Of a stretch of 64,000 bases of DNA, positions 8,887-48,982 are shown in pieces. The position numbers were made by a program, and so were the translations under genes. Each line of letters starts with the position of its first letter. Position 1 is the stretch's first letter. Source of the stretch: a virus. The stretch is from the IMG/VR virus record IMGVR_UViG_3300046477_000491, positions 1 to 64,000 of that record. One strand, given 5' to 3'. The notes under the pieces are model-generated. The model did no database searches, had not been told where the DNA came from, and saw only the letters and a program-made list of their open reading frames with translations.

Positions 8887-11800
8887 TCAGTTCCCTGCCG
8901 CGATGAGATTGATTCGGTTGTCCTCGGCGAGCGCCGTCATGAACTTGTTCGCTGCGTCCCGCGCCGAGGTCTGGTCCATGGCACCGGACACCTGCACCGT
9001 GATGGCGCCCGCGTGGAAGTTCAGGGTGGCCTTACCACCCGAGGTATTAAGTCCGCCGAGCCCGCCAGCCAGTGGGGTATTGCTCGACAGCGCCTTTCGG
9101 ATTGCGTCGGCCTGGTGAGCCGGGATAATCATTTCGCCCTTGTGGACGCGAGCCGTCTGGTCGACGTCGATATTCGCCGAGCCGACCGCGTATCCCTTGT
9201 AGGATCCACCGTTCGCCATCGACTTGATACCGGGAACATTCGCCAGGGATCCGTACCGGGAATCCGCGTAGCGGACGCCCGCGATGATGTTGTCGACCGG
9301 GTTCCAGATGTTCTTGTGACCGGCCAGCGAGTACGCCTTGAACGTCGAGTCGATGGTCTGCATGATGCCCTTGGACGGGTGGCCCGCCTTGGCGTTGGAG
9401 TCCCAGTTGTTCTGCGCGTGCGGATTACCGCCGGACTCGTGCATGGCCATCGTGTTGACGTACTTCTCGTTCGACGACGTGTCCTGGTGCAGGATCCCGA
9501 GCGCGGACTTGATCCACCCCTTGAGGTTGCCGGTCGGCATCGAGCCGGGCACGGACCCGTTGTCGGTGCTCTTGCTGCTGCTGCCGCCCTGCCCTGCGCC
9601 CACGCCCGAGCCGACGTTGGCCGCGCCAACCGAGGAGATACCGGCCGCGATGGCGTCGACCTCCTCGACCGAGCCGTACGAGCCGACGTCACCGCCGAAG
9701 CCCATGGAGGACAGGCGGTTGGAGTCAGACCCGGCGGTGTCGGTACCGTCGTCGGCGAGGTCGCCGAGGTTGCCGACCGCACCGAGGATGCGCACCGCGT
9801 TGGTGAACTCGCCGGACTGGTAGGCGCGGATACGAACCGAGGACCCGGTGTGCGGGGCCTCGATGATCTTCCCGTTGCCGATACACATCACGACGTGGTG
9901 CGCGGGGTTGCCGTTGAACAGCAGGTCGCCCGCCCGCTCCTGGCCGAGCTTGACCGACTTACCGGCCTTCTGCTGCTGCGCGGCCGTACGGGGCAGGGAG
10001 ACGCCGATCTGCTTGAACGAGAACTGGATCAGGCCCGAGCAGTCGAAGCCCTTCGGAGAGGCACCGCCCCAGACGTACTTCACGCCCAGGTACTTCATGG
10101 CGACCCTGATGACCGAAGCGGCCGTCTTGCCCGCACCGTTCGTGCCCGTGGCCACCGCGCCGCTCTTCCCCTTGCCGCCGGTCGCGGACGCCGCGCTGCT
10201 GCCGCTGCCCCCGTCACCACCCCAGAGGCTGGACACCAGACCGTAGCCACCACCGATGGCACCACCGATGACGGTTCCCTCGGGACCGAACAGCGTTCCG
10301 ATGGCAGCGCCATACGCTGCGTCGCCGAGCGTGGCCGACGCAACGTTGATGGCCTTCTTGCCCTTTTTGTTCTTGACGTGCTTGGCCGCGTAGTCACCTG
10401 CGGCGTGGATACCCCACCCGGCCAGACCGAGACCACCCGCCTTGGCCAGCGGGGAGCGCAGCAGGGCACCGGCACCGGCCATCATGCCGCCGTCGGCAGC
10501 GGCTGCACCGGCACCGCCCAGGAGGCTGCCTGCACCTTCGGTACCTCCGAGCATGCGTCCGGCCATACCGAGGCCGCGCATCATGCCGTAGTTGCCCATG
10601 GCGGAACCGACAGCGGATCCGACCATGGAACCCATGCCACCGGCATAACCGATCGCGCTGTCCAGATGGGTGTTCTTCAGGAAGTTCTGGATCGCGGTGC
10701 TGAACTCGTTCAGGTACTTCGTCGCGGTCTGGAGGCCGTCGGTGTAGGAGTCGTTGGTGTTGACGGTCTGGTTGCGCAGCGTCCCGGCCCGGTCGGATAG
10801 GGACTGCGCGTTCGTCTTGCCGATGCCCCACGAGTTCATCTTGGCGATGGCCGACTTGTCTCCGTTACCGACCTTGTTCATCGTGGACGCGTACGACTGC
10901 GCCGAGACGCCATGCATCTGCGCGGTGAGCAGTCCCAGCAGCGCGCTGCGGACCTGCTGGAGCGTGGAGGCGTCCATGGTCGCCGACAGCGACTGCATCA
11001 TGGCCGAACCCGGGCTCAGCGTCTCGTCGAGCTGCTCCTTGGTCTTGACGTTCTTCAGCGACGGCCAGCGCTGGAGCACCTGCTGGGCGATCTGCTGGGG
11101 CGTCTGCCGCTGCCCGCCCTTGATCGTCTGAATGCCGATGGCCTGGTTGGCGTAGTAGGACTTGGCCGTCCACGCGCTGGTCATGCCCTGGACGCGCTGC
11201 GCCTCGGAGACTCCGGGCTGGAGGTAGCCGGACGACTTGGCGTAGTTCCAGGCGGTGTTGTAGTTCGCACCGCCCGGGGAGCCCACGGAGGATCCCACGA
11301 GGCGCATCTGGGCCTGGGCGATGTCCTGGGTGCTCTGCGCGGTGAAGTTGTTCTTGTACGCCTGGTCGCGCAGGGTGTGCCAGTTGGAGCCCGACAGTTG
11401 GGCTGCCTGGTAGGAGGTGGTCTGCATGACGACCTGGTCGTCCATCTGCTTGGTCGACCAGGCGTAGAAGTCCTTGAGACCACCCTTGAACGTGTAAGGG
11501 CTCTTGCGCGCACCACTGCCGGAGCCGCTGCCCGAACCGCCGCTGCCGGAGCCACCCTGGCCGCCGTTGTTGGCCGCTCCGCCACCCTGTCCGGTCTGGC
11601 CGGAGAACGTGGCACCGCCACCGTTGGATGAGGTCGTCTGGCGCTGCTGCTGGCCGCCAGCTCGGGGAGCCGTGGAGGGGGCGCTGGCACCGCCGTTGGG
11701 TCGGCCGTGGCCGTAGTTACTGGTGTTGTTCCAGACGTCGTTGGCGAGCATGCCGAAGCCCCGGGCGCCTGATTGCGACCCGGAGCCACCGCTGTGCCAG

Positions 11801-11970
11801 CCCTGCCAGAGCCCCTGGGCTCCTCCGCCGACCGTCTTCATCTTGGCGGCGGCCGTCTCCAGCCCCTTGTTCAGGGCCTCGACGTTCTTCGCCAGTTTCG
11901 AGATCGCATCCTGGGCCTTGTTCCAGCCCAGGAGCGGTCCCTGTCCTGCCACCGTACCTTCGTCAGCCAT
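8887..11970 (-). CDS. Tape measure protein with C-terminal NlpC/P60 peptidase and SLT lytic transglycosylase domains
   Basis: Ala/Gly-rich helical body; 'YVWGGASPKGFDCSGL...HHV' (NlpC/P60); 'HESGGNPHAQNNWDSNA..GHPSKGIMQ' (SLT). Confidence 0.9.
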   Translation of the reverse strand: MADEGTVAGQGPLLGWNKAQDAISKLAKNVEALNKGLETAAAKMKTVGGGAQGLWQGWHSGGSGSQSGARGFGMLANDVWNNTSNYGHGRPNGGASAPSTAPRAGGQQQRQTTSSNGGGATFSGQTGQGGGAANNGGQGGSGSGGSGSGSGSGARKSPYTFKGGLKDFYAWSTKQMDDQVVMQTTSYQAAQLSGSNWHTLRDQAYKNNFTAQSTQDIAQAQMRLVGSSVGSPGGANYNTAWNYAKSSGYLQPGVSEAQRVQGMTSAWTAKSYYANQAIGIQTIKGGQRQTPQQIAQQVLQRWPSLKNVKTKEQLDETLSPGSAMMQSLSATMDASTLQQVRSALLGLLTAQMHGVSAQSYASTMNKVGNGDKSAIAKMNSWGIGKTNAQSLSDRAGTLRNQTVNTNDSYTDGLQTATKYLNEFSTAIQNFLKNTHLDSAIGYAGGMGSMVGSAVGSAMGNYGMMRGLGMAGRMLGGTEGAGSLLGGAGAAAADGGMMAGAGALLRSPLAKAGGLGLAGWGIHAAGDYAAKHVKNKKGKKAINVASATLGDAAYGAAIGTLFGPEGTVIGGAIGGGYGLVSSLWGGDGGSGSSAASATGGKGKSGAVATGTNGAGKTAASVIRVAMKYLGVKYVWGGASPKGFDCSGLIQFSFKQIGVSLPRTAAQQQKAGKSVKLGQERAGDLLFNGNPAHHVVMCIGNGKIIEAPHTGSSVRIRAYQSGEFTNAVRILGAVGNLGDLADDGTDTAGSDSNRLSSMGFGGDVGSYGSVEEVDAIAAGISSVGAANVGSGVGAGQGGSSSKSTDNGSVPGSMPTGNLKGWIKSALGILHQDTSSNEKYVNTMAMHESGGNPHAQNNWDSNAKAGHPSKGIMQTIDSTFKAYSLAGHKNIWNPVDNIIAGVRYADSRYGSLANVPGIKSMANGGSYKGYAVGSANIDVDQTARVHKGEMIIPAHQADAIRKALSSNTPLAGGLGGLNTSGGKATLNFHAGAITVQVSGAMDQTSARDAANKFMTALAEDNRINLIAAGN

Positions 11971-27175: not shown

Positions 27176-28249
27176 TCACCGTGCCTGGCGCAGCGGCACG
27201 ACGTTGTGCTGGGAGACCATCGAGGTCAGGAACGGCTGGCCCTTCATCGTCTCGTCCCGACGCCTGCGCTCCGAGGACAGGCCCAGGTACCGCTCCGTGG
27301 TCGCCATGGACGAGTGATGCAGCAGCGCCGAGACCGTACGGAGCGCGGCGTCGTAGCCGGACTCCTCCGACAGCTTGTCGAAGTACGCACGCGCCACGGC
27401 CCGGCGCACCGTGTGCGTCCCCTCATAGCGGGTCGGCAGGCCCAGCTTCTCCAAGGCCCCCTTCACGATCTTCTCCGTCCGCTCGACCGGCCGGTCCGGG
27501 TGCCACACGTACGGGGTCCGCTCGTACACCCGCCGCCCCAGGTCCTCGTCGAAGTAGTGCGTCTTGATCTGGTTGCCCGACCGCGAGGGGAAGAGGTAGT
27601 CGTCCGGCCGCAGCGGACGCCCGAGCAGTGCCGCGTACTCCTCGAACCAGATGCGCAGCTCCCGCTCCAGGTCGGCGGTCAGCGGCATCTCGTCCTCCTC
27701 CTTCGTCTTGATCACGGTCACGAAGACCTCACTCTGCGCGAAGTCGACGTCCCCGACCTTCAGGGCTTGCAGCTCGCTCGCGCGGCACGCGGTGTTCACG
27801 GCCGCCGCCAGGTACGCCCGGTGCATCGCGCACTCGGCCTGGTCCAGGAGCTGGAGGAGGATCCCCGGGGCGGGCTGCATCCGCTTGCGCAGCGGCTCGG
27901 GCAGCGGCTCGACCAGGGAGAGGTAGTTGTCCAGCGGGGCGTGTCCGTTGGCGCGGGCGTAGGCGAAGAACACCTTCAGGCGCTTGCGGTAGTGGTTGTG
28001 TGTCGTCGGTCCGACGGCCGCGCGCAGGGCCTGGCCCTTGATGCGGGTGACGTGGATGTCCATGAGCCCGCCGTCGCCGTAGAAGAAGTCCCGGACGAGC
28101 TGCGGGGTGAGGTCGTCGAAGCTGGGGTTGCCGAGGTGGTCGGCGAAACGGGGCAGCAGGCTCTCGTCCGTACGCATGGTGTTGTCGGCCTTGGCCACGC
28201 GCCGGTTGTCCAGGTACTCGTCGATCGCGCTGCGCAGTGCGGTGGTCAC
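27176..28249 (-). CDS. Tyrosine recombinase / integrase
   Basis: Catalytic R (TACRASEL), K (IKTK), HxxR (HTVRR), H (LLHH) and Y (TERYL). Confidence 0.92.
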   Translation of the reverse strand: MTTALRSAIDEYLDNRRVAKADNTMRTDESLLPRFADHLGNPSFDDLTPQLVRDFFYGDGGLMDIHVTRIKGQALRAAVGPTTHNHYRKRLKVFFAYARANGHAPLDNYLSLVEPLPEPLRKRMQPAPGILLQLLDQAECAMHRAYLAAAVNTACRASELQALKVGDVDFAQSEVFVTVIKTKEEDEMPLTADLERELRIWFEEYAALLGRPLRPDDYLFPSRSGNQIKTHYFDEDLGRRVYERTPYVWHPDRPVERTEKIVKGALEKLGLPTRYEGTHTVRRAVARAYFDKLSEESGYDAALRTVSALLHHSSMATTERYLGLSSERRRRDETMKGQPFLTSMVSQHNVVPLRQAR

Positions 28250-28647: not shown

Positions 28648-30744
28648 ATGGCCAGCATAGCGGCTGAACGCGCCCGCGCACGGGCTGACAAGGTCAACAG
28701 CGCCCGCCCCGGAACCCCCAACAGCTTCAAGTCCGCCACCGCGCTCGCACGCATCGTCAAGCGAGTCGGCGCCTACCTCCGGGTGTCCACCAAGGACCAG
28801 GTCATCGGCTACGGCCTCGACGTCCAGCTCAAGGGCATCCAGGACCACGTCGATGGCAAGAACGCCATCGAGCAGCGCAACGGCACCAACATCGTCTGGG
28901 AACTCGCCGAGATCTACGAGGACGCAGGCGAGTCCGGCGCCAAGCAGGACCGCCCCCAGATGATGCGCCTGGAGCGCGACGTCCGCGACAAGAAGATCGA
29001 CGTCGTCGCCGTCCACAAGTTCGACCGCATCGGCCGCACCGGCCGCGCCTTCTGGCACTGGGTCTGGGCCCTCGAAGACGCCGGAACCTCGATCATCTCC
29101 ACCACCCAGGAGATCGACACCACCACCACCCACGGCGTCACCGCCCTCCAGCAGCTCGCCTCCTTCTCCGAGATGGAATGGCGCACCATCCTGGAGCGCA
29201 CCCAGAACGGCCTCAACATGAAGGCCGCAGCCGGAGGCTGGACCGGAGGCCCCCCGCCGTACGGCTACCGCATCGAGAACCAGGGCAAGCGCGACTCCAA
29301 GCTGGCCCTGGACCCCCAGGAGAGCCGCACCCTCGAACTCGCCGCCCAGCTCATCGTCGAAGGCGGCTACACCGTCGACCGTGCCGCCCACATGCTCAAC
29401 CTCATCGGCCGCCTCACCCGCAAGGGCGTGGCATGGACCGGCTCCAACCTGCGGCACAAATTCCGTAACACCGCCCTGGACGGATTCGTCGTCTACCGCA
29501 ACACCGACGAGGTCGTCAACAAGCGCCGCAAGCGCGCCACCAAGATGAACCCCGACGGCTCCCCCAAGCACGGACCGATGATGATCATCGACACCCCGAT
29601 GGTCTTCGACATCGACCGGCTCATGTCCATCCGTCACGCGCTCCGGCGAAACGGCGGCTGGACCCACTCCGGCAACTACAAGTACCACCCGCTCAGCACC
29701 CGCGTTATCGGCGAATGCGGCGCCCACTACACCGGGGTCCACGTAAAGATCGAGGACCGCCGCACCTACCGCTGCTCCGGCAAGAAGTGCGGCGACTCCG
29801 TTATCGACGCCGTCGCGCTGGAAGAGATCGTCTGGGACAGCCTGAAGAAGTTCCTCGGCGACAAGTCCAAGCTGCGGGAGATCGCCAAGGACTGGGTCAC
29901 CACCGCGCCCGATCACCGGGAGATGTATGTCGCCCGTATCGACGAACTCGAAAAGGAGGTCGCGGGCCTTCTCGAACTCACCACGACGACGCTGGTGAAT
30001 CTCGCAACGGCAGGAGTCGACGCGCGGGCGATCAATTCAGCCGTCGCGAAGATCAACCAGGACATCAGCCTCAAGCAGACGATGCTCGATGACGCCCGGG
30101 ACATGCTGTCGAAGTCCGAGGAGGCTGCACAGCGCGCGGAGGATTTCCAGCGGCTGGTCGAGATCGCCAGCTTCAACCTGGAGAACATCAACGACCGGCA
30201 GAAGTCCGAGATCATGGACCTGCTGGAGATCCAGGTGACGCTTATAGGGCCGGTTCCGCTGGAGCGTCGCTTTGGGCCGGGGTCAGAAATCGAAGCGTGG
30301 CACGTCGAGCGTGGGCGTATGCCGAAGGAACTCACGGACGAGCTGTGGGAGCAGATCAAGCCCAACATCCCGTTCCGGGTCACCAAGCGGAGCCTGGACC
30401 TTCGACTGCTCGTGGAGGGGCTGATCCACAAGGCGCGTACGGGCTGCCCCTGGGATGAGATGCCTGAGCGGTTCCCCGACAAGAACGCTCTGCGCTCCCG
30501 CTGGAGGGCCTGGAGGGGCGGGACGTGGGAGAGCTTCATGGAGCCGCTTCTGGAGGCCGTACCGGTCCGTCCACTGCGTCAGGCGCCGCTTCCGCCCATG
30601 CGGGTGACGGGGAACATCGACCCCCGTCTGGTCGAGTTCACGAACGGCAAGCTGACGAGCCAGGTTCCTCACTCTGGCGCACCGACATCCAGGGGATCGT
30701 TCACGTACATCATCAACGTGGCTGATCTGCGATTGGCCGTCTGA
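28648..30744 (+). CDS. Large serine recombinase with an extra C-terminal IS5-transposase-like (DUF4096-like) HTH domain
   Basis: YLRVS catalytic motif, DRIGR, GGPPPYGY, Zn-ribbon (CG...YRC...C) and coiled coil, then 'LTDELWEQIKP...RTGCPWDEMPERF...RW.AW..GTW'. Confidence 0.9.
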   Translation: MASIAAERARARADKVNSARPGTPNSFKSATALARIVKRVGAYLRVSTKDQVIGYGLDVQLKGIQDHVDGKNAIEQRNGTNIVWELAEIYEDAGESGAKQDRPQMMRLERDVRDKKIDVVAVHKFDRIGRTGRAFWHWVWALEDAGTSIISTTQEIDTTTTHGVTALQQLASFSEMEWRTILERTQNGLNMKAAAGGWTGGPPPYGYRIENQGKRDSKLALDPQESRTLELAAQLIVEGGYTVDRAAHMLNLIGRLTRKGVAWTGSNLRHKFRNTALDGFVVYRNTDEVVNKRRKRATKMNPDGSPKHGPMMIIDTPMVFDIDRLMSIRHALRRNGGWTHSGNYKYHPLSTRVIGECGAHYTGVHVKIEDRRTYRCSGKKCGDSVIDAVALEEIVWDSLKKFLGDKSKLREIAKDWVTTAPDHREMYVARIDELEKEVAGLLELTTTTLVNLATAGVDARAINSAVAKINQDISLKQTMLDDARDMLSKSEEAAQRAEDFQRLVEIASFNLENINDRQKSEIMDLLEIQVTLIGPVPLERRFGPGSEIEAWHVERGRMPKELTDELWEQIKPNIPFRVTKRSLDLRLLVEGLIHKARTGCPWDEMPERFPDKNALRSRWRAWRGGTWESFMEPLLEAVPVRPLRQAPLPPMRVTGNIDPRLVEFTNGKLTSQVPHSGAPTSRGSFTYIINVADLRLAV

Positions 30745-35993: not shown

Positions 35994-36204
35994 CTGCGTC
36001 TCCTTCGCCGAGCCCAACGAACGTGCATCGAACAGCAGTTGGAAGAGTGAGTGACGACGCCACCACCCTCCGCGAGTAGCATCCTCCCCATCCGTCTGTC
36101 ATGCAAGTGCATGAGCTGAGCAAGTGCACGTAAGGATGAAGGCTGTTCCGTGCTAAGAGGGGGTGGCAGACTGTGAGGCAGTACCCGCAACCAGGGAGGT
36201 CCCG

Positions 36205-37071
36205 TTGGCAGCCAATCCGACCGTGCTGAAGCGACGGCTCGGTAGAGAGCTGCGCAACTTGCGCCAGACCAAGAACCTGACGGCCGCGCAGGTCGCCAAG
36301 TCGCTCAACTGGTCCGAGTCCAAGGTCAGCAGGATCGAGGGCGGTAAGTCGCCGCTCTCAGACAAGGATGCCAGAGCGCTACTGGGCCTGTACGGAGTTG
36401 ATAAGTCTGAGGAGATCCAGCAGTTCGTCGGACTCGTCCGCCGAAGCCGCCAGGAGGGGTGGTGGCACAGCTACGGCGACGCGCTCCCGGACTGGTTCAA
36501 GGCGTTCGTGGGCTTCGAGGCCGATGCGTCCGAGATCCGGATCTACCAGAACGAGCTGATCCCGGGACTTCTCCAGACCAAGGCGTACGCCTTCGAGGTC
36601 ATCCGCGCGATGAACCCGGAGGAGACGACCGAGCAGGTGGAGAACCGGGCGTCTCTCCGCTTCGAGCGGCAGGAGATCCTGGGCCGCAAGGAGCCTGCCC
36701 CGCCGAGGATTTGGACGATCCTCAACGAATCAGCCCTGCGTCGTTCCGTCGGGTCTGGAATGGTGATGGCCGAACAGCTCAATCACGTGGCCAACCTGGT
36801 CGACGAGCACCCGGGTGTCACTGTTCAGATTCTCCCGTTCGACGCCGGGGCCCACGCAAGCATGGGGTACAACTTTTCGATCTTGTCGTTCAGCGACGTT
36901 CCAGGCAGCATCGCCTACACCGAGGCGCTGACGTCCGCGACGTACATCGACAAGGAGTTGGACCTCGGCCGCCATGACCAGATCTTCCAGCGGCTCATGG
37001 CGGCATCCGTAAGGCCAGAGAAATCCGTTTCCTGGCTCAGAGAAACAGCAAGGGACTACGACCGTGCATAA
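36205..37071 (+). CDS. XRE-family HTH regulator (DUF5753 / Scr1-like)
   Basis: 'RRLGRELRNLR...SESKVSRIEGG', 'GWW', 'IPGLLQT.AYA', 'R..RQ.IL', 'VQILPF'. Confidence 0.92.
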   Translation: MAANPTVLKRRLGRELRNLRQTKNLTAAQVAKSLNWSESKVSRIEGGKSPLSDKDARALLGLYGVDKSEEIQQFVGLVRRSRQEGWWHSYGDALPDWFKAFVGFEADASEIRIYQNELIPGLLQTKAYAFEVIRAMNPEETTEQVENRASLRFERQEILGRKEPAPPRIWTILNESALRRSVGSGMVMAEQLNHVANLVDEHPGVTVQILPFDAGAHASMGYNFSILSFSDVPGSIAYTEALTSATYIDKELDLGRHDQIFQRLMAASVRPEKSVSWLRETARDYDRA

Positions 37072-40789: not shown

Positions 40790-41068
40790 ATGTTCTGGTA
40801 CTGCGATGACTGCAACGGCTGGGGCGTGTCCGGGACGGAGGTCGACATGGCGGTCGACAAGCAGCGGCACCTGGACGCCCACCAGGCCCCCGACACTCCC
40901 CCACCGTCCGAGGAAGAGCCGGATGAGGTCACTGTCTGGACTCTGAAGAACGCGGCGTGGGGTATAACGGCCGTCCTCGGGCTACTGTCCGCCCACTACA
41001 CGTCCCTGTTGGGGGTATCTGCGGTTGCGGCCCTGCTCACGTTCGTGGTGACCGGCATCGGAGAATGA
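40790..41068 (+). CDS. Small Zn-finger membrane protein
   Basis: CDDC...H...H followed by two hydrophobic segments. Confidence 0.55.
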   Translation: MFWYCDDCNGWGVSGTEVDMAVDKQRHLDAHQAPDTPPPSEEEPDEVTVWTLKNAAWGITAVLGLLSAHYTSLLGVSAVAALLTFVVTGIGE

Positions 41069-41070
41069 CC

Positions 41071-41103
41071 GAGCCCCGGCAACCTGATGGGTTACCGGGG
41101 CTT
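41071..41103. terminator. Terminator closing the tRNA operon
   Basis: GAGCCCCGG.AACC...GGTT.CCGGGGCTT. Confidence 0.7.
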
Positions 41104-41110
41104 ACGGGGG

Positions 41111-41183
41111 CTCCCCCACCTGGACTCGAACCAGGAACCCTGCGATTAACAGTCGCATGCTCTGCCAATTGAGCTATGGAGGA
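41111..41183 (-). tRNA. tRNA-Asn(GTT)
   Basis: Cloverleaf; GCGAC-T-GTT-AA-TCGC anticodon arm, GGTTCGAGTCC T-arm; no encoded CCA. Confidence 0.93.
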
Positions 41184-41188
41184 TTGCG

Positions 41189-41269
41189 TACCCAAGGTGG
41201 GACTTGAACCCACACGCCTTTCGGCGCCGCTTTTGAGGCGGCTGACTGTGCCAATTCGTCTACTCGGGC
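41189..41269 (-). tRNA. tRNA-Leu(CAA)
   Basis: GCCGC-CT-CAA-AA-GCGGC anticodon arm, variable arm GCCGAAAGGC, GGTTCAAGTCC. Confidence 0.88.
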
Positions 41270-41357
41270 GAGCGTGCTCCGCACTGTTGTATCCGGTTTA
41301 GCACGGGCACTCCAGTCCAGGTGTCTTACCGGTCCCGGACTTTCTTACAGGTGAATC

Positions 41358-41987
41358 CTACTTCACCGTGTAGCGCCCGTAGTAAACGGACTTCGACCAC
41401 GGCGAGTAGTAGTTCACGCCCTTACCGGGGCGCTCCGCTTCCAGCCACTTCGTCGAGGAGACGTAGATCGCCACGTGGTAGACGTGGCCGCTGGAGTCGT
41501 GAACGAAGACCAGGTCGCCCTTCTGGGGCTTCGAGACCTTCGCGCTGGCGTGGTACTGGTCGCTCGCGACGCGGGGAATCGACTTCCCCAGCTTCTGGAA
41601 CGAGTAGTGGGTCAGGCCGGAGCAGTCGAAGCCCGCCGACGGCGAGGATCCGCCCCAGACGTACCGCGTGCCGATGTACTTGGCGGCCTGGTTGACGATC
41701 TTCGTGCCCGACGAGGTCGAGCTGGTCGTCGAAGCGGGCTTGGCAGGTGCCGGGGTGGCCGATGCGGCCAGGAGGATCCGCTCTCCCGGGTAGATCCGGT
41801 TGGGGTTGGATATGTGGTTGATGGACGCGAGGTGCTGATACGTCGTCTTGTGGGATTTCGCAATCCCGCTCAGTGTGTCTCCGCTTTTCACGGTCACGTA
41901 ACTGGCGGCTGCTTCGGCGACCGAAGTCGCTATCGGCGATACGGCCAGTGCTCCCGCGAGAGCGATTCCAGCGATCCTCTTATTCAT
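41358..41987 (-). CDS. Secreted LysM plus NlpC/P60 peptidoglycan endopeptidase
   Basis: Signal peptide (..AEA), '[14 protein letters not shown]...NPNRIYPGE' LysM and 'YVWGG...FDCSGL...YHVAIY'. Confidence 0.93.
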
Positions 41988-41999
41988 GATGCACTCCGC

Positions 42000-42145
42000 A
42001 CGCCTGCGAAATTAGGTGACGGGCTCGGGTAAGTGCTGTTCCCTACCACAAATGTTTCTGCGGATTCGCCCCAGTACTGCGTTTCGGTCTCCCGCCCCTG
42101 TTCAGGGTTGATTGCAGTTTTTGTCCAGGAACAGGGCTCGGCGTC
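42000..42145 (-). ncRNA. c-di-AMP (ydaO/yuaA-class) riboswitch, possibly a variant
   Basis: Minus strand reads CGCCGAG-CCCTG...CAGGG-GCGGGAGACC...TGGGGCGAATC...GTAGGG...CCCGAG-CCCGTCACCTAATTTCGCAGGCG directly before the RBS of a cell-wall hydrolase. Confidence 0.82.
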
Positions 42146-42154
42146 TGGACAAAG

Positions 42155-42227
42155 TGGCCCCCCTTGGAATCGCACCAAGATCTCCCGCTTTTCAGGCGGG
42201 CGCATTAACTGTCTCTGCCAAAGGGCC
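42155..42227 (-). tRNA. tRNA-Phe(GAA), atypical
   Basis: CCCGC-CT-GAA-AA-GCGGG anticodon arm and intact stems, but the T-loop is TGCGATT and the D-loop lacks GG. Confidence 0.7.
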
Positions 42228-42233
42228 GTGAAG

Positions 42234-42307
42234 TCTGGACGGCAGGATTCGAACCTGCGACCCCCTGCATCCAAAGCAGGCGCGCTACCGGGCTGCGCTA
42301 CGTCCAG
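42234..42307 (-). tRNA. tRNA-Pro(TGG)
   Basis: C1-G72/A73, CCTGC-TT-TGG-AT-GCAGG, GGTTCGAATCC. Confidence 0.92.
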
Positions 42308-42384
42308 AAGTTGATGGCTACACATTACGGTATCAAGATTGGTCCTTGTCAACCCCATTGAGCAACTAGCTTGCCATGGAGAGA

Positions 42385-42556
42385 CAGTTCCCCGCCGGGT
42401 CTTACGCCTCGCTTGGGGTAGCGAGCCGAGGAGGCTGCCCTAGCGGGCGGGGAACGGGAAGCGGCCGAGGCAGAACGCCGTCAAGGCCGGGATGAGCGCG
42501 GGCATGCTGGCGGAGGGGAGGTTGCTCCCCTGGCCCGGCCGTCGCTCGCTCATCGT
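42385..42556 (+). ncRNA. Candidate structured non-coding RNA of unknown class
   Basis: Three consecutive stem domains with G-U pairs that favour the plus strand; no credible ORF. Confidence 0.45.
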
Positions 42557-42717
42557 GTTCATGCATCCTTTTTACAGGATCACGGTTACGGGTTTGTAAT
42601 CAGGCCACTGCCCCGTTTCCCTCGCGCGAGGCGGGGGGTAGGGCACTGTCCAGAGCAGCAAAAAGGGCCGGGGGGACGCCGTTGTCCCTCCGACCCTTGC
42701 CAGGGCGTATGTCAGCT

Positions 42718-43092
42718 CTACTTGTGCGCGGCCTCGAACTCGCGGATGAGGTCCGTGGGGATCCGGCCGGTGTGGGCGATCTCCCGGCCCTGCTCCTTCA
42801 GCCACTGGCGCACGTCCGCAGCCGTGAAGGTCTGGCCGCCCCGACCCTTGATGGCCTTCAGCACCTGCGTGCCGACGCGCTTCTCGGTGTTGTGGGCGAT
42901 GGAGGTGAAGGGCTCCAGGGCACCGACCATGAGCTGCTGATGGTCCCGGCATAGATCCATGAAGTATCTCGTCGTCCCGACCGTGATGGCCGTGGCCTCG
43001 TTACCGGGGACGTCCTGGCCGCAGGTTTCGGTCTTGCGGCCGTGCTTCACCTTGAAATCGCAGAACTTGTCAACACTGACGCGCTCACCCAT
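42718..43092 (-). CDS. lsr2: Lsr2-like nucleoid-associated protein
   Basis: 'Y.MDL...H' dimerisation region and 'VRQWLKEQG..IAHTGRIP..L...FEAA' DNA-binding domain. Confidence 0.8.
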   Translation of the reverse strand: MGERVSVDKFCDFKVKHGRKTETCGQDVPGNEATAITVGTTRYFMDLCRDHQQLMVGALEPFTSIAHNTEKRVGTQVLKAIKGRGGQTFTAADVRQWLKEQGREIAHTGRIPTDLIREFEAAHK

Positions 43093-44574: not shown

Positions 44575-45444
44575 CTAGAAGGCCCCGGGGGCCACTTGGA
44601 GGGTCCGCAGGCCGAGAAGGCGCCACATCTCGACCACCTGGTCACGGTCGTCGAGGACCATCCACACGTTGTAGCGGCCCAGGATCTCCTGCCGGTAGAT
44701 CTCCTCCTTCACGATCGAGTCCTTGCGCATGTCGTACTCGGCGCGCATCAGCAGCGGCGACAGCGAGGTCCACTCCCCCACGTGCTGCACCAGCCAGGCC
44801 CGGGTCCGCTTGTAGGCCCGAGCGTCGCGGCCGGACACGAAGATGATCTCGGCGCCCGCGTCCCGCAGCGTGTTCACGAGGTCGATGACGTCCTGGTGCG
44901 CCGTGTCCTCGTCCACCCGGTCCCAGTCGAAGGGACTGCGGTCGGCCATCTTGGCCAGCGTGCCGTCCAGGTCCACCAGCACGGCGTGCGGGCGGTCAGG
45001 GAGCAACGCAGGGGGGTCGGCAGGCTTGGGGGCCAGGTACTTCTCGTACATGTCCTTGATGACCTTCTCGCCGACGCTCTTCTCCCGCTTCAGGTCGCGG
45101 CGGACGCAGGTATTAAGTGCCACGTCGGTGAAGTCCTTGACGAAGAACCGGGCTCCCCGGCTTTCCGCCAGCCGCTCCAGGCGCTCCTCGTGGTACGGGT
45201 TGAGGTTGGTGTCGGCGACGATCACGCTGACGCCCTGGAGCAGGAACATCTCCACGAGCGCGTCGCGGGCCTTGACGACCTGCCGCTCGTTCTTGCCGTG
45301 CCAGCGGTCGGCGTGCAGCATCGCCCGCAGGTCGTCCTTGCACACGATCACGACGGAGCCGGGGATGGCCTTGAGGACCTGCTCGCGGGCCCACGTCGTC
45401 TTGCCGGAGCCCGGCAGGCCCTTGGTCATGGTCAGCGTCGTCAC
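44575..45444 (-). CDS. Polynucleotide 5'-kinase / 3'-phosphatase (T4 PseT-like)
   Basis: GLPGSGKTT P-loop, DTNL, HAD motifs DLDGTLA, SGR and DDRDQVV. Confidence 0.93.
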   Translation of the reverse strand: MTTLTMTKGLPGSGKTTWAREQVLKAIPGSVVIVCKDDLRAMLHADRWHGKNERQVVKARDALVEMFLLQGVSVIVADTNLNPYHEERLERLAESRGARFFVKDFTDVALNTCVRRDLKREKSVGEKVIKDMYEKYLAPKPADPPALLPDRPHAVLVDLDGTLAKMADRSPFDWDRVDEDTAHQDVIDLVNTLRDAGAEIIFVSGRDARAYKRTRAWLVQHVGEWTSLSPLLMRAEYDMRKDSIVKEEIYRQEILGRYNVWMVLDDRDQVVEMWRLLGLRTLQVAPGAF

Positions 45445-45485
45445 GGGCTTCTCCTTCGTCTTCTTCGGTCCGCAGCACAGGCATT

Positions 45486-45791
45486 TCACGGGCATCGGCA
45501 GCACCCGTCGCAGCCGTGCAGGCCCTCGTAGGGGTTGTAGTCCTCGCCCTGCATCATTCGCTTGTAGGCGAGGTCGTCCGGGTCGGGGTGTCCGACGCCG
45601 TGGGAGCACATCCGCTCCATCAGGGCGCGGTCCATGCGGAAGTGCTGGGGCCAGTCGGCCATGTGGTGGTCGGAGGGGTTGTGTACGCAGCAGTGGCGGC
45701 CGATGCAGTCCTTGCGGGGGTGGGCGAGGAGTCGTTCCCCGCCCACCAGTTCCGCCGCCTCGAACCAGCCGCCGAGGTCGTCGGGCTCCAT
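45486..45791 (-). CDS. Cys/His-rich metal-binding protein
   Basis: 'C...HCCVHNPSDHHM...ER.C.HG.GHPDPD...HGCDGCC', between the ligase and PNK genes. Confidence 0.7.
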   Translation of the reverse strand: MEPDDLGGWFEAAELVGGERLLAHPRKDCIGRHCCVHNPSDHHMADWPQHFRMDRALMERMCSHGVGHPDPDDLAYKRMMQGEDYNPYEGLHGCDGCCRCP

Positions 45792-46897
45792 CAGGCCGCG
45801 TCCTCCGAGAGCGTCTGGAACGGCTTCTCGTACGTCGGCCGGACCCGCTTCCAGACGTCGGCCGTGATGTCCTTGCCGCCGTAGATACGGAACAGCAGAC
45901 CCGGGTACGGCGTCTCCTGGGCGAGCAGCGCGAACTCCTTGCGGCGCTTCTGTGCGTCCGTCTCCGGCCGCCGCAGGCGCTTGATGATCCAGGCGTAGTC
46001 GTCCATGATCTGGGCCTTCTCGCGGGCGAAGTCGCCCTCCAGGCGGTACACCTGCTGGTGGACCCAGGTGTAGAACTCGTCCGGGACGCGGTCGATCCAG
46101 GAGTCGATGCCCTGCCCGTTGGCCAGCGCGTCCCACACGGAGAGGGTGGAGACGTTCGTCAGGATGCGGTGCAGGCGGACGTACTCGTCGTACTTGAACT
46201 TCACCCGGGTGTCGCTCCAGGGGAAGCGGACGACGAAGCCCTCCAGGTTGGACTCCTGCACGTTGCGCATGTAGTCCAGGACGTCGGGCATCGTCTTGAA
46301 GCCGACCGGCTCGTTGACCGGGCCCGGCCAGTCGTAGGTGCCGAAGGGGAGCGTCTTGCCGGTCGCGGTGTCGATGACGGCGAGGAGGACCAGTTCGTCC
46401 AGGCCCTGGTAGTCCACCACGATGCGGTTGGCCGCGTAGACGATCTCGAAGAGATACGTCAGGCCGAGGATGGGCTCGAACTTCGGGTACCGGCTCTGAA
46501 CGGCTTCCGTGGCGTGCAGCGCCTGGGGGCTGGTGAAGGAGCCCCGCGTGGCGATGCGGAACTCCCCGGTATTAAGCGTGTAGCCGACGCCCAGAGAGCC
46601 GTCCCACTTCACGTACCCCTCGACCGGCTGCGTCAGGAGCGTGGAGTGCAGTTCGGGGACCTGGTCCCAGTTGAAGAACTTCTCGAACGGGCGGGAGACG
46701 ACCTCGTTGGTGACACTGTCGACGATCAGGCCGCGCGTCTTCTTCGTGACGTCGTTCCACATGCCCTCGTACTGGGCCTTGTTCGTGTAGTTGAGGATGG
46801 CCAGCGGAGCGTCGGGGTGGTTCTGCCTGCGGACGTAGCCCTTTTCGAGCATGTCCTTGAGCAGGCTCTGGGACATGATGCTCATGAGGTTGGTCAT
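45791..46897 (-). CDS. RNA ligase (T4 Rnl1-like)
   Basis: 'RGLI...RPFEKFFN', motif I KWDGSL, 'TRGSF', 'FEI', 'EGFVV', 'K.KY.EY'. Confidence 0.9.
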   Translation of the reverse strand: MTNLMSIMSQSLLKDMLEKGYVRRQNHPDAPLAILNYTNKAQYEGMWNDVTKKTRGLIVDSVTNEVVSRPFEKFFNWDQVPELHSTLLTQPVEGYVKWDGSLGVGYTLNTGEFRIATRGSFTSPQALHATEAVQSRYPKFEPILGLTYLFEIVYAANRIVVDYQGLDELVLLAVIDTATGKTLPFGTYDWPGPVNEPVGFKTMPDVLDYMRNVQESNLEGFVVRFPWSDTRVKFKYDEYVRLHRILTNVSTLSVWDALANGQGIDSWIDRVPDEFYTWVHQQVYRLEGDFAREKAQIMDDYAWIIKRLRRPETDAQKRRKEFALLAQETPYPGLLFRIYGGKDITADVWKRVRPTYEKPFQTLSEDAA

Positions 46898-46919
46898 GGA
46901 TCCTCCGAGGTGTGGTGGG

Positions 46920-47147
46920 TCAGAGACGCTGGTCGAGTGCCGTGACCACGCGCTTGGCGAAGGTCTCGTAGAACTCGTCGGGGAGGTGGTCGATGGCGAA
47001 CCACTTCCGGGCCTCAAGGGCGACGATCTCTACGGCCTCGGCGCGCTTCTTGCCCTGCCGCTCCAGCCAGTCCCTCGCGGCGCTGACGTTGGGGATGGCC
47101 AGGTGTCCGAGGTTCAGGGTGGGGCGGTCGTCCTTCGTGGCGGTCAT
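46920..47147 (-). CDS. Hypothetical protein
   Basis: 75 aa ORF in the operon. Confidence 0.55.
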   Translation of the reverse strand: MTATKDDRPTLNLGHLAIPNVSAARDWLERQGKKRAEAVEIVALEARKWFAIDHLPDEFYETFAKRVVTALDQRL

Positions 47148-47876: not shown

Positions 47877-48527
47877 TCAGATCTTCCTCACGTAGTTGAT
47901 GAAGTCCTGGAGCCGGTCCGTACGCGGCTGCGCCGGAAGGATGCCGACCCGGTCGTTGAAGACGTCGAACGCCTTCCAGAACTCGGCCTCGATCTGCTCG
48001 CCCGACATCTCGTCGAACGCCCAGTAGAAGTCCGGGTCCGGCACACGGACGGTCAGCGTCCCGAACTCCAGCAGTTGCTGGCCCTGCCGCAGCAGCCGGA
48101 AGCAGTGCCGGGCGTGCTTGGCCACACGCTTCTGCCTGGCCTCGTTGGCCAGCTCCTGCTTGATCCGCTTGATCTGCCCCATGGCGTACCCGCCGTACGC
48201 GGAGCGCACGTAGCCCTCGGACAGGAAGTCCTCGCGGATGTCGACCAGCCACTCCCCCTCCCAGGACTGCTCCTCGTACTCCTCCAGGTACATCAGGTCC
48301 ATGATCGTCGGGTTGCACTTCAGCGCGAGGTTCACGTACTTGCCGACCTCGTGCAGGGTGACGTCCGGAGCCGTGGTCACCAGCGAGTCCTGATGCTGGG
48401 AACCGATACGGAAGAACTCCGGAGTGGGACGGATGAAGATGCCGAGCCGGTCGGTGTCCGAGCCGGGCCGGGCGAGGCCGAAGGCAGTGCTGCCCACGAC
48501 CCCGCTCAGCAGGATGTTGGTCCCCAT
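47877..48527 (-). CDS. Pol-beta superfamily nucleotidyltransferase (YcgL-like)
   Basis: 'GSTAFGLA.PGSDTD..G' GS-DxD motif, 'NPT', 'KHARH..RLL'. Confidence 0.85.
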   Translation of the reverse strand: MGTNILLSGVVGSTAFGLARPGSDTDRLGIFIRPTPEFFRIGSQHQDSLVTTAPDVTLHEVGKYVNLALKCNPTIMDLMYLEEYEEQSWEGEWLVDIREDFLSEGYVRSAYGGYAMGQIKRIKQELANEARQKRVAKHARHCFRLLRQGQQLLEFGTLTVRVPDPDFYWAFDEMSGEQIEAEFWKAFDVFNDRVGILPAQPRTDRLQDFINYVRKI

Positions 48528-48982
48528 CAGAACCAGTAGTCCTCGGACGGGTCGTTGTCGCGGCCGTCCTCCTCGTAGCGCTCGGCCGCCTCCTCGTACG
48601 TCGCCAGGGCCTCCTCGACAGACCGGCCCCACGTCATACCGGCGTCCTGCTCGGACTGCACGATCTCCAGCAGCGCCCGCGTCTCGTTGTCGGCCTTGAC
48701 GAACTCCGTGTCGATCAGCGTCCCCGCCGAGGCGTACACGTTCTTGTCCTGGGCGAACATGTCGTCGTACGTGACGCCCTTATAGGCCAGCACCTGGCCG
48801 ACGATGCACGACGGCGCCTTCGTGGCCGGGTCGAAGTACGCACACAGCGCTGCATCGTCGATGGTGAGCATCCTGTACACGTGGTCGGCGCCCCGCTCCT
48901 CGACCGCGCGGGCCAGCAGCGTCTTCGCCTCGTCCAAGGTGATCTCGACGGCCTCGTGGGAGGCCGGGGTATTAAGCGTCAT
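48527..48982 (-). CDS. Hypothetical protein
   Basis: 'CAY......PSCIVG..L', 'Q..QD.G.TWG' actinophage-type pattern. Confidence 0.7.
   Translation of the reverse strand: MTLNTPASHEAVEITLDEAKTLLARAVEERGADHVYRMLTIDDAALCAYFDPATKAPSCIVGQVLAYKGVTYDDMFAQDKNVYASAGTLIDTEFVKADNETRALLEIVQSEQDAGMTWGRSVEEALATYEEAAERYEEDGRDNDPSEDYWF

Follow-up and report, generated by a model that had tools for sequence, protein, structure and literature searches.

Riboswitches that sense cyclic di-AMP (c-di-AMP) have been studied on bacterial chromosomes. Here we describe an aptamer of this class, ydaO-yuaA (RF00379), in 64,000 nucleotides (nt) of viral DNA, where it occupies the leader of a LysM-NlpC/P60 gene, which specifies a cell-wall hydrolase predicted to be secreted, within what appears to be a phage tRNA operon. 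This stretch, hereafter the window, covers positions 1 to 64,000 of the 76,753-bp IMG/VR virus record IMGVR_UViG_3300046477_000491, and coordinates are those of the window unless the record is named. The phage probably ties the hydrolase to a host second messenger.

Two studied elements come closest to this layout. In Corynebacterium glutamicum, an actinobacterial ydaO-class aptamer lies directly before the NlpC/P60 wall peptidase gene nlpC (cg2402), as it does in the phage; it has no canonical terminator and acts on translation as an OFF switch, for which an anti-Shine-Dalgarno role involving GGAG has been put forward (PMC9960051), and in these respects too the phage copy would resemble it. 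The nlpC element is chromosomal, with its own promoter, a multi-gene operon behind it and no flanking tRNAs, unlike the phage copy, which also has an extra 5' hairpin. The phage aptamer carries C at a linker position where all Streptomycetaceae chromosomal copies examined carry G.

The second element is riboCdA of Thermoanaerobacter pseudethanolicus (4QLM). A 6-bp pseudoknot sequesters its Shine-Dalgarno (SD) sequence; c-di-AMP stabilizes this pseudoknot and translation falls ~6-fold (PMC11963983). The crystal construct pairs the L7 loop with the 3' tail likewise (sequence printed in PMC5393176). The linker that connects P3 with P5 is part of ligand site 1, which is the dominant one, and engineered shortening of P1 from 4 to 2 bp broadens the response ~50-fold (PMC11963983). 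The phage copy shares the fold, a nearly identical 3' core (CCCGAGCCCGUCA.CUAA...CGCA.GCG; PMC11963983, PMC5393176) and the 6-bp L7/3'-tail pseudoknot that holds the SD (PMC11963983). Whereas riboCdA is a Firmicute chromosomal element with a linker G and a 4-bp P1, in the phage copy the linker has C, P1 is weaker, P3 is short and the 5' end is probably tRNA-derived. Translational repression by c-di-AMP has been demonstrated for riboCdA (PMC11963983).

Streptomyces coelicolor has seven ydaO-like leaders (PMC10117811). The Streptomyces regulon (rpfA, swl genes) has in common with the phage copy the host genus, the ligand class and the secreted muralytic targets (PMC10117811), while host copies differ by long P3 insertions, a linker G and CUCC/GGAG-type pseudoknots. 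At S. coelicolor rpfA the riboswitch has no canonical terminator, and still c-di-AMP brings about premature termination and a lower transcript level (PMC10117811; discussed in PMC9960051). Its control is thus reported at the transcript level (PMC10117811), unlike the mode that we propose for the phage.

Riboswitches are rare in phages. A 2017 survey listed only the c-di-GMP-I and glutamine classes in phages, and none for c-di-AMP (PMC5473149); a full-text literature search likewise turned up no phage for which a c-di-AMP riboswitch is described. The c-di-GMP-I riboswitches of Clostridioides difficile prophages and the glutamine riboswitches of cyanophages resemble the present copy in reading a host messenger or metabolite, but belong to other classes, hosts and target genes (PMC5473149). 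What would be new here is that an authentic RF00379-type aptamer sits in a tRNA operon of a phage and has a lineage-specific change at a predicted ligand-site position.

A c-di-AMP-class aptamer on a temperate Streptomyces myovirus

A covariance-model search of the window with RF00379 returned a full-length match on the minus strand at 41987-42126 (model positions 1-134 of 134), with 54.8 bits against a gathering score of 38 and an E value of 6e-10 for the whole window. The original prediction, read from the letters, had placed a ydaO-like element at 42000-42145, and this match bears it out. Related viral copies (n = 20) scored 49-72 bits. In the window aptamer 22 of 26 nested pairs are formed; across 13 leader variants, 91.7% of pair cells form, compared with 35-51% when the structure is slid. 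Of the upper-case junction letters in the Rfam consensus the aptamer lacks only one, with C for the G of CAGCUAA. A single-sequence minimum-free-energy fold of the leader was uninformative (z -0.36). The aptamer occupies the same-strand 5' leader of a wall-hydrolase gene, one of the typical targets of RF00379 beside K+ or osmolyte transporters. We conclude that it is a genuine c-di-AMP-class riboswitch on a real phage, with ligand binding predicted.

The carrier is a temperate Streptomyces myovirus. The record encodes a tail sheath, a portal, a major head protein, a large terminase and baseplate proteins, and the presence of tail sheath, portal and head genes together with integrases on a virus contig substantiates the claim that the unit is carried by a phage. 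The record is itself a contig from rhizosphere metagenomes, and DNA of the phage was detected across many such metagenomes. The same module lies within a ~100-kb related prophage on contig C18 of Streptomyces sp. NPDC002088, whose major head protein, 84 kb from the module, is 94% identical to that of the window; a serine recombinase is also encoded on C18. Since the module shares this contig with the head protein and the recombinase, we assign the host to the genus Streptomyces and regard the phage group as temperate. A culturable strain thus appears to carry a related prophage, which makes the ideas below testable.

The lysogen NPDC002088 also carries eight chromosomal RF00379 copies, mostly before wall-hydrolase genes (LytM/M23, NlpC/P60 and transglycosylase-like, from translations read by eye), and homologues of the phage gene in Kitasatospora and Streptacidiphilus carry one too. 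The link that had been drawn to host wall hydrolases under ydaO control therefore holds.

A hydrolase gene and its riboswitch leader enclosed by tRNAs

Read along the minus strand, the unit comprises a promoter-like site, tRNA-Pro, tRNA-Phe, a 9-bp hairpin, the aptamer, the LysM-NlpC/P60 gene, tRNA-Leu, tRNA-Asn and a hairpin. Every element named in the original prediction was found on this strand, at or close to where it had been placed. The four tRNAs were called by ARAGORN and by the Rfam tRNA model: tRNA-Pro with anticodon UGG (42233-42307, 68.4 bits), tRNA-Phe with anticodon GAA (42154-42227, 56.4 bits), tRNA-Leu with anticodon CAA (41188-41269) and tRNA-Asn with anticodon GUU (41109-41183), all on the minus strand.

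The promoter-like site (42322-42352, minus strand) lies ~15 nt before tRNA-Pro. The TTGACA that had been proposed at about 42350 is present at 42352-42347 and is followed, after a 19-nt spacer, by TAATGT at 42327-42322. Both hexamers are invariant or nearly so in seven related phages while the spacer between them varies, and the site reads as consensus-like. On the 5' side the unit is bounded by an intrinsic-terminator-like hairpin (42660-42697, minus strand; one stem mismatch, then UUUUU; read from the letters and folded), 3' of an Lsr2-like gene. At its far end lies a 13-bp GC-rich hairpin (41072-41102, minus strand) with a folding free energy of -32.3 kcal/mol (z -5.19), a stability that 0 of 200 shuffles equaled. 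It is terminator-like but has no U tract. A strict consensus scan of 40900-42800 called neither a promoter nor a terminator; for promoters the scan accepts only 16-18 nt spacers, and the candidate has 19 nt. The promoter-like site and the hairpins on both sides would together make a moron layout.

Only 27 nt separate tRNA-Phe from the aptamer, and this gap is occupied by a conserved 9-bp hairpin, UUUGUCCAG/CUGGACAAA, with a 16-nt loop (42120-42153, minus strand; from folding), which starts 1 nt past the tRNA-Phe discriminator. All nine pairs are kept in 13/13 variants. A tRNA stands immediately 5' of the hairpin in every relative, and in two contigs that lack tRNA-Phe the hairpin directly follows tRNA-Pro instead. 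Because the full CCA of tRNA-Phe is not encoded, its 3' end must be cut and extended. With a gap so short and filled by the hairpin, co-transcription and an mRNA 5' end made by tRNA processing are the simplest reading, in agreement with the earlier proposal that 3' processing of tRNA-Phe creates the 5' end of the riboswitch. We propose that the hairpin forms a protective 5' end of the processed mRNA. The layout is unusual: a protein gene with a riboswitch leader lies within a tRNA operon, and its mRNA 5' end is expected from tRNA excision.

RNA-library contigs from two studies run from tRNA-Phe into the aptamer (42056-42211, 2 differences) and from the aptamer into the coding sequence (41869-42129). 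They are a weak sign of transcription, and strand and transcript ends are outside their reach. One RNA-library contig (depth 3.9) fuses 41988 to 42056 and so leaves out 67 aptamer nt; a divergent relative or an error of assembly may account for it.

Between the loop of the hairpin, CCCUGUUC, and the P2 loop plus 3' arm, GAACAGGG (42096-42103), eight complementary pairs are present in 13/13 variants. One compensatory change from U-A to C-G, in one relative, and one wobble occur in this helix, and 62 of 500 shuffles did as well. As a lead only, it may represent a kissing contact or an alternative fold.

The leader is predicted to switch translation off

The aptamer match ends at 41987, the A of the AUG start codon. 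The strict scan found no terminator-like site between the aptamer and the start codon, and there is no room for one. The loop of the last hairpin (L7) holds GCACUU (42031-42036, minus strand), the 5' strand of a pseudoknot whose 3' strand, GAGUGC (41996-41991), overlaps the SD sequence GGAG (41997-41994), so that strand and SD together occupy 41991-41997 on the minus strand. All 6 pairs form and are invariant in 13/13 leader variants, and GAGUGC spans three of the SD's four bases, 6 nt ahead of AUG. We favor translational control because the aptamer abuts AUG, no terminator was found and a pseudoknot strand overlaps the SD; the likeliest mechanism would be a translational OFF switch.

By eye, several chromosomal leaders of the lysogen show an analogous complementarity between loop and tail, with CUCC-type loops facing GGAG-type tails.

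We consider the following account fairly probable as a whole: a single RNA from which tRNA-Phe is excised, a translational OFF switch operated by c-di-AMP, and an accessory wall hydrolase under its control on a temperate Streptomyces myovirus. The unit would be transcribed as one RNA from the promoter-like site to the terminator hairpin, and excision of tRNA-Phe would leave an mRNA that starts with the 9-bp hairpin, directly followed by the aptamer. Bound c-di-AMP would stabilize the aptamer fold, including the L7/3'-tail pseudoknot, whose GAGUGC strand would mask the SD and block ribosome binding. To judge from this anatomy and from precedent, the enzyme would be made when host c-di-AMP is low. 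This could happen in the lysogen, for instance at germination as proposed for rpfA (PMC10117811), or equally during infection; the original suggestion of timing by germination or osmotic state is conjectural. Any effect on the downstream tRNAs would be indirect, such as one exerted by Rho on untranslated message. The module resembles host hydrolase genes controlled by ydaO elements; it was probably acquired long ago from an actinobacterial host and would since have been kept under strong purifying selection in the phage group.

Alternatively, the switch might act mainly on transcription or on transcript abundance, and so also gate tRNA-Leu and tRNA-Asn. Precedent for this comes from rpfA, whose riboswitch lowers the transcript without a canonical terminator (PMC10117811, PMC9960051). 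Moreover, an untranslated, C-rich coding sequence of 630 nt could expose Rho sites and spread the block to the tRNAs, and the spacer between the coding sequence and tRNA-Leu has no strong insulating structure (z -0.81). We nevertheless regard it as unlikely: an aptamer that ends on the start codon leaves a terminator no room, none was found, the pseudoknot strand overlaps the SD, and the two closest studied examples of this layout act on translation (PMC9960051, PMC11963983). For the same anatomical reasons we do not favor the form of this idea in the original prediction, in which termination at the riboswitch gates the two downstream tRNAs.

Several points weigh against translational repression by c-di-AMP. 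The rpfA precedent may leave room for a transcriptional component. Binding of c-di-AMP, like regulation, is predicted here, the promoter and terminators are consensus-like readings only, and the RNA-library contigs may be DNA carry-over. P1, which belongs to ligand site 2, is weak, with three of four pairs in the window, 65% of its pair cells formed across variants and two pairs in one subgroup. Covariation within the phage family is nil, with 0 pairs changing on both sides among the 13 variants, because the phage leaders are too alike; the evidence for the structure comes from the Rfam model and from a comparison to host copies. Finally, the phage lineage has C where the site-1 linker has a conserved G. 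Given this C and the weak P1, affinity, cooperativity or even the ligand could differ.

A ligand-site change specific to the phage lineage

The 3' core of the aptamer reads CACCUAAUUUCG. It had been noted to depart from the usual sequence, and this is partly so. The UUU in place of CCU is compensated on the 5' side (GCGGGA/UUUCGC, with 6/6 pairs kept) and is thus a compensated helix change, while the G-to-C change is real. In the RF00379 alignment this C, at 42016 on the minus strand, replaces the conserved G of CAGCUAA in the P3-P5 linker, part of ligand site 1.

The linker letter is C in 21/21 phage copies (13/13 variants) and G in 8/8 chromosomal RF00379 copies of the lysogen NPDC002088, as well as in the leaders of the Kitasatospora, Streptacidiphilus and Streptomyces homologues. 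A G-type pattern of the 3' core occurs in 81/81 Streptomycetaceae genomes, with more than 300 matches, and the C-type occurs once, in the prophage. In IMG/VR the ratio is reversed: the C-type pattern has 21 matches, 20 of them module copies and one, outside the module, a chance match. The G-type pattern matched twice there. One match is a LysM-M23 gene of the host, caught at the margin of a provirus call; the other has no RF00379 hit.

Single-base changes switch the ligand in other cyclic-dinucleotide riboswitches, namely among GEMM-I and cyclic GMP-AMP (cGAMP) variants. The phage aptamer might thus be a variant in affinity or specificity, re-tuned by the fixed C and the weak P1 to another c-di-AMP range or to another (cyclic) dinucleotide. 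A C fixed in all 21 phage copies where the G-type pattern is found in all 81 Streptomycetaceae genomes fits this idea, as do the reversed ratio in IMG/VR, the place of the linker in dominant site 1 and the altered response range upon P1 shortening (PMC11963983). We think it improbable, since the remaining conserved junction letters and the helices are kept, the covariance-model score is well above the cut-off and the gene context is the classic one for c-di-AMP. Somewhat more doubtful still is its narrower form, a natural specificity variant for another dinucleotide signal such as the degradation product pApA or a cyclic dinucleotide of host defense. If a specificity variant were at work, the phage would read a signal other than the housekeeping c-di-AMP pool of its host. 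A lineage-specific C at an otherwise invariant G also provides a natural mutant for studying site 1 of a two-ligand aptamer.

A putatively secreted hydrolase, probably distinct from the lysis enzymes

The gene behind the aptamer (41358-41987, minus strand) encodes a LysM-NlpC/P60 (C40) D,L-endopeptidase of 209 amino acids (aa). Pfam searches matched NlpC/P60 (PF00877) with 82.9 bits (cut-off 23; 1.9e-23) and LysM (PF01476) with 55.5 bits (cut-off 20.9; 5.5e-15). The catalytic triad C122 (DCSG), H171 and E183 is invariant in 21 homologues, with E183 aligned to the third His of LytE (8i2e). The closest solved relatives are Bacillus subtilis LytE (8i2e, E 5e-23) and other D,L-endopeptidases. The N-terminus has K/R residues, a hydrophobic stretch and AEA-A, and looks like a Sec-type signal; it is followed by one LysM, a Pro/Ser/Thr linker and the NlpC/P60 domain. 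In about half of the related phages the enzyme lacks LysM and comprises 160-165 aa from an MNK start after the SD; these relatives still have the leader, along with an enzyme that keeps its signal peptide and NlpC/P60 domain.

The closest cellular relatives of the hydrolase are Streptomyces proteins. The chromosomal homologues that we examined in Kitasatospora, Streptacidiphilus and Streptomyces share no more than 30-47% identity with the phage enzyme, and their leaders are of a different subtype, with a long P3 and G in the linker. Given this distance and the difference in subtype, the capture would be old or from an unsampled source.

Two other wall-degrading proteins are encoded on the record. 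An endolysin candidate lies outside the window, at record positions 74275-75378 on the minus strand (phrog_291, 7e-36), and a tail/tape-measure-like protein of 1027 aa (8887-11970, minus strand) contains NlpC/P60 and SLT transglycosylase domains. The latter, a virion lysin, shares its fold with the hydrolase behind the riboswitch. With a separate endolysin candidate and a tail lysin at hand, the riboswitch-controlled enzyme would be a third, accessory hydrolase.

A peptidoglycan hydrolase on a phage could also be its lysis enzyme, with the switch timing lysis, and the LysM part does give weak matches to endolysin families of PHROGs. This is very unlikely, given the separate endolysin candidate, the Sec-type signal peptide read from the sequence, the location of the gene, which has tRNAs and early-type genes for neighbors and lies a long way from the structural block, and the several relatives that keep the switch without LysM.

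The leader is more conserved than its gene

The module occurs in 20 other IMG/VR contigs. Seven of them, with proteins 81-89% identical, have the identical order of tRNA-Pro, tRNA-Phe, RF00379 aptamer, coding sequence, tRNA-Leu and tRNA-Asn. The 13 further contigs came from pattern scans and whole-record RF00379 searches and include four genomes of 98-107 kb that are practically complete (99-100%), three of which have terminal repeats. In each of the 13 a tRNA precedes the same hairpin, which is followed by the aptamer and by the gene for a secreted NlpC/P60 enzyme, in several cases without LysM. Among viral records searched after a match to a loose aptamer pattern, 35 of 47 had no RF00379 match.

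Against 50,697 cultured-phage records, a megablast search with the 2-kb region returned tRNA similarities only, and a blastn search with the aptamer returned only three chance-level matches of 22 nt (E 6). Among cultured Streptomyces phages, five that have NlpC/P60 genes (BRock, Quantum, pSt2308, Wakanda and Coruscant) gave no RF00379 match, which indicates that the switch is not a general feature of phage NlpC/P60 genes.

Between the window and eight relatives the leader (hairpin and aptamer) is 81-99% identical, while the coding sequence is 66-90% identical in nucleotides and 65-91% in protein. The constraint on the leader is thus similar in strength to that on the neighboring tRNA-Phe, which argues against a functionless passenger. 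That the leader merely came along when the hydrolase gene was captured, as the same leader class on host hydrolase genes might suggest, is hardly credible, since it exceeds the coding sequence in conservation in every comparison, its pseudoknot and SD are invariant, and the module is retained by phages 75-107 kb in size with protein identities of only 65-91%.

A whole phage group thus keeps a c-di-AMP-class riboswitch under stronger constraint than the gene behind it, from which we infer that phages can plug into the second-messenger control of wall remodeling in their hosts.

Gene neighborhood

Around the riboswitch unit, phage genes on the same strand encode an exonuclease, the Lsr2-like protein, a polynucleotide kinase-phosphatase (Pnkp), a T4 Rnl1-like RNA ligase and an RlaP nucleotidyltransferase. 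The gene for the Lsr2-like nucleoid-associated protein (42718-43092, minus strand) lies directly upstream of the unit and is followed by the hairpin with its U tract. Farther upstream on the minus strand are the genes for Pnkp (44575-45609), the RNA ligase (45791-47017) and the RlaP-type nucleotidyltransferase (47877-48632). Pnkp, RNA ligase and RlaP make up a tRNA-repair set, which, together with the phage tRNAs, has the look of a defense against anticodon nucleases of the host.

A tyrosine integrase (27176-28249, minus strand) lies back to back with a large serine recombinase (28648-30744, plus strand). The serine recombinase of the NPDC002088 prophage is only 33% identical to the latter. 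Among mostly minus-strand genes, a regulator with HTH_31 and DUF5753 domains is encoded on the plus strand (36163-37071) and is a candidate phage repressor. Beyond the window, a queuine tRNA-ribosyltransferase-like protein (record 68216-69754, minus strand; phrog_887, 1.7e-78) may serve 7-deazaguanine modification of DNA or tRNA.

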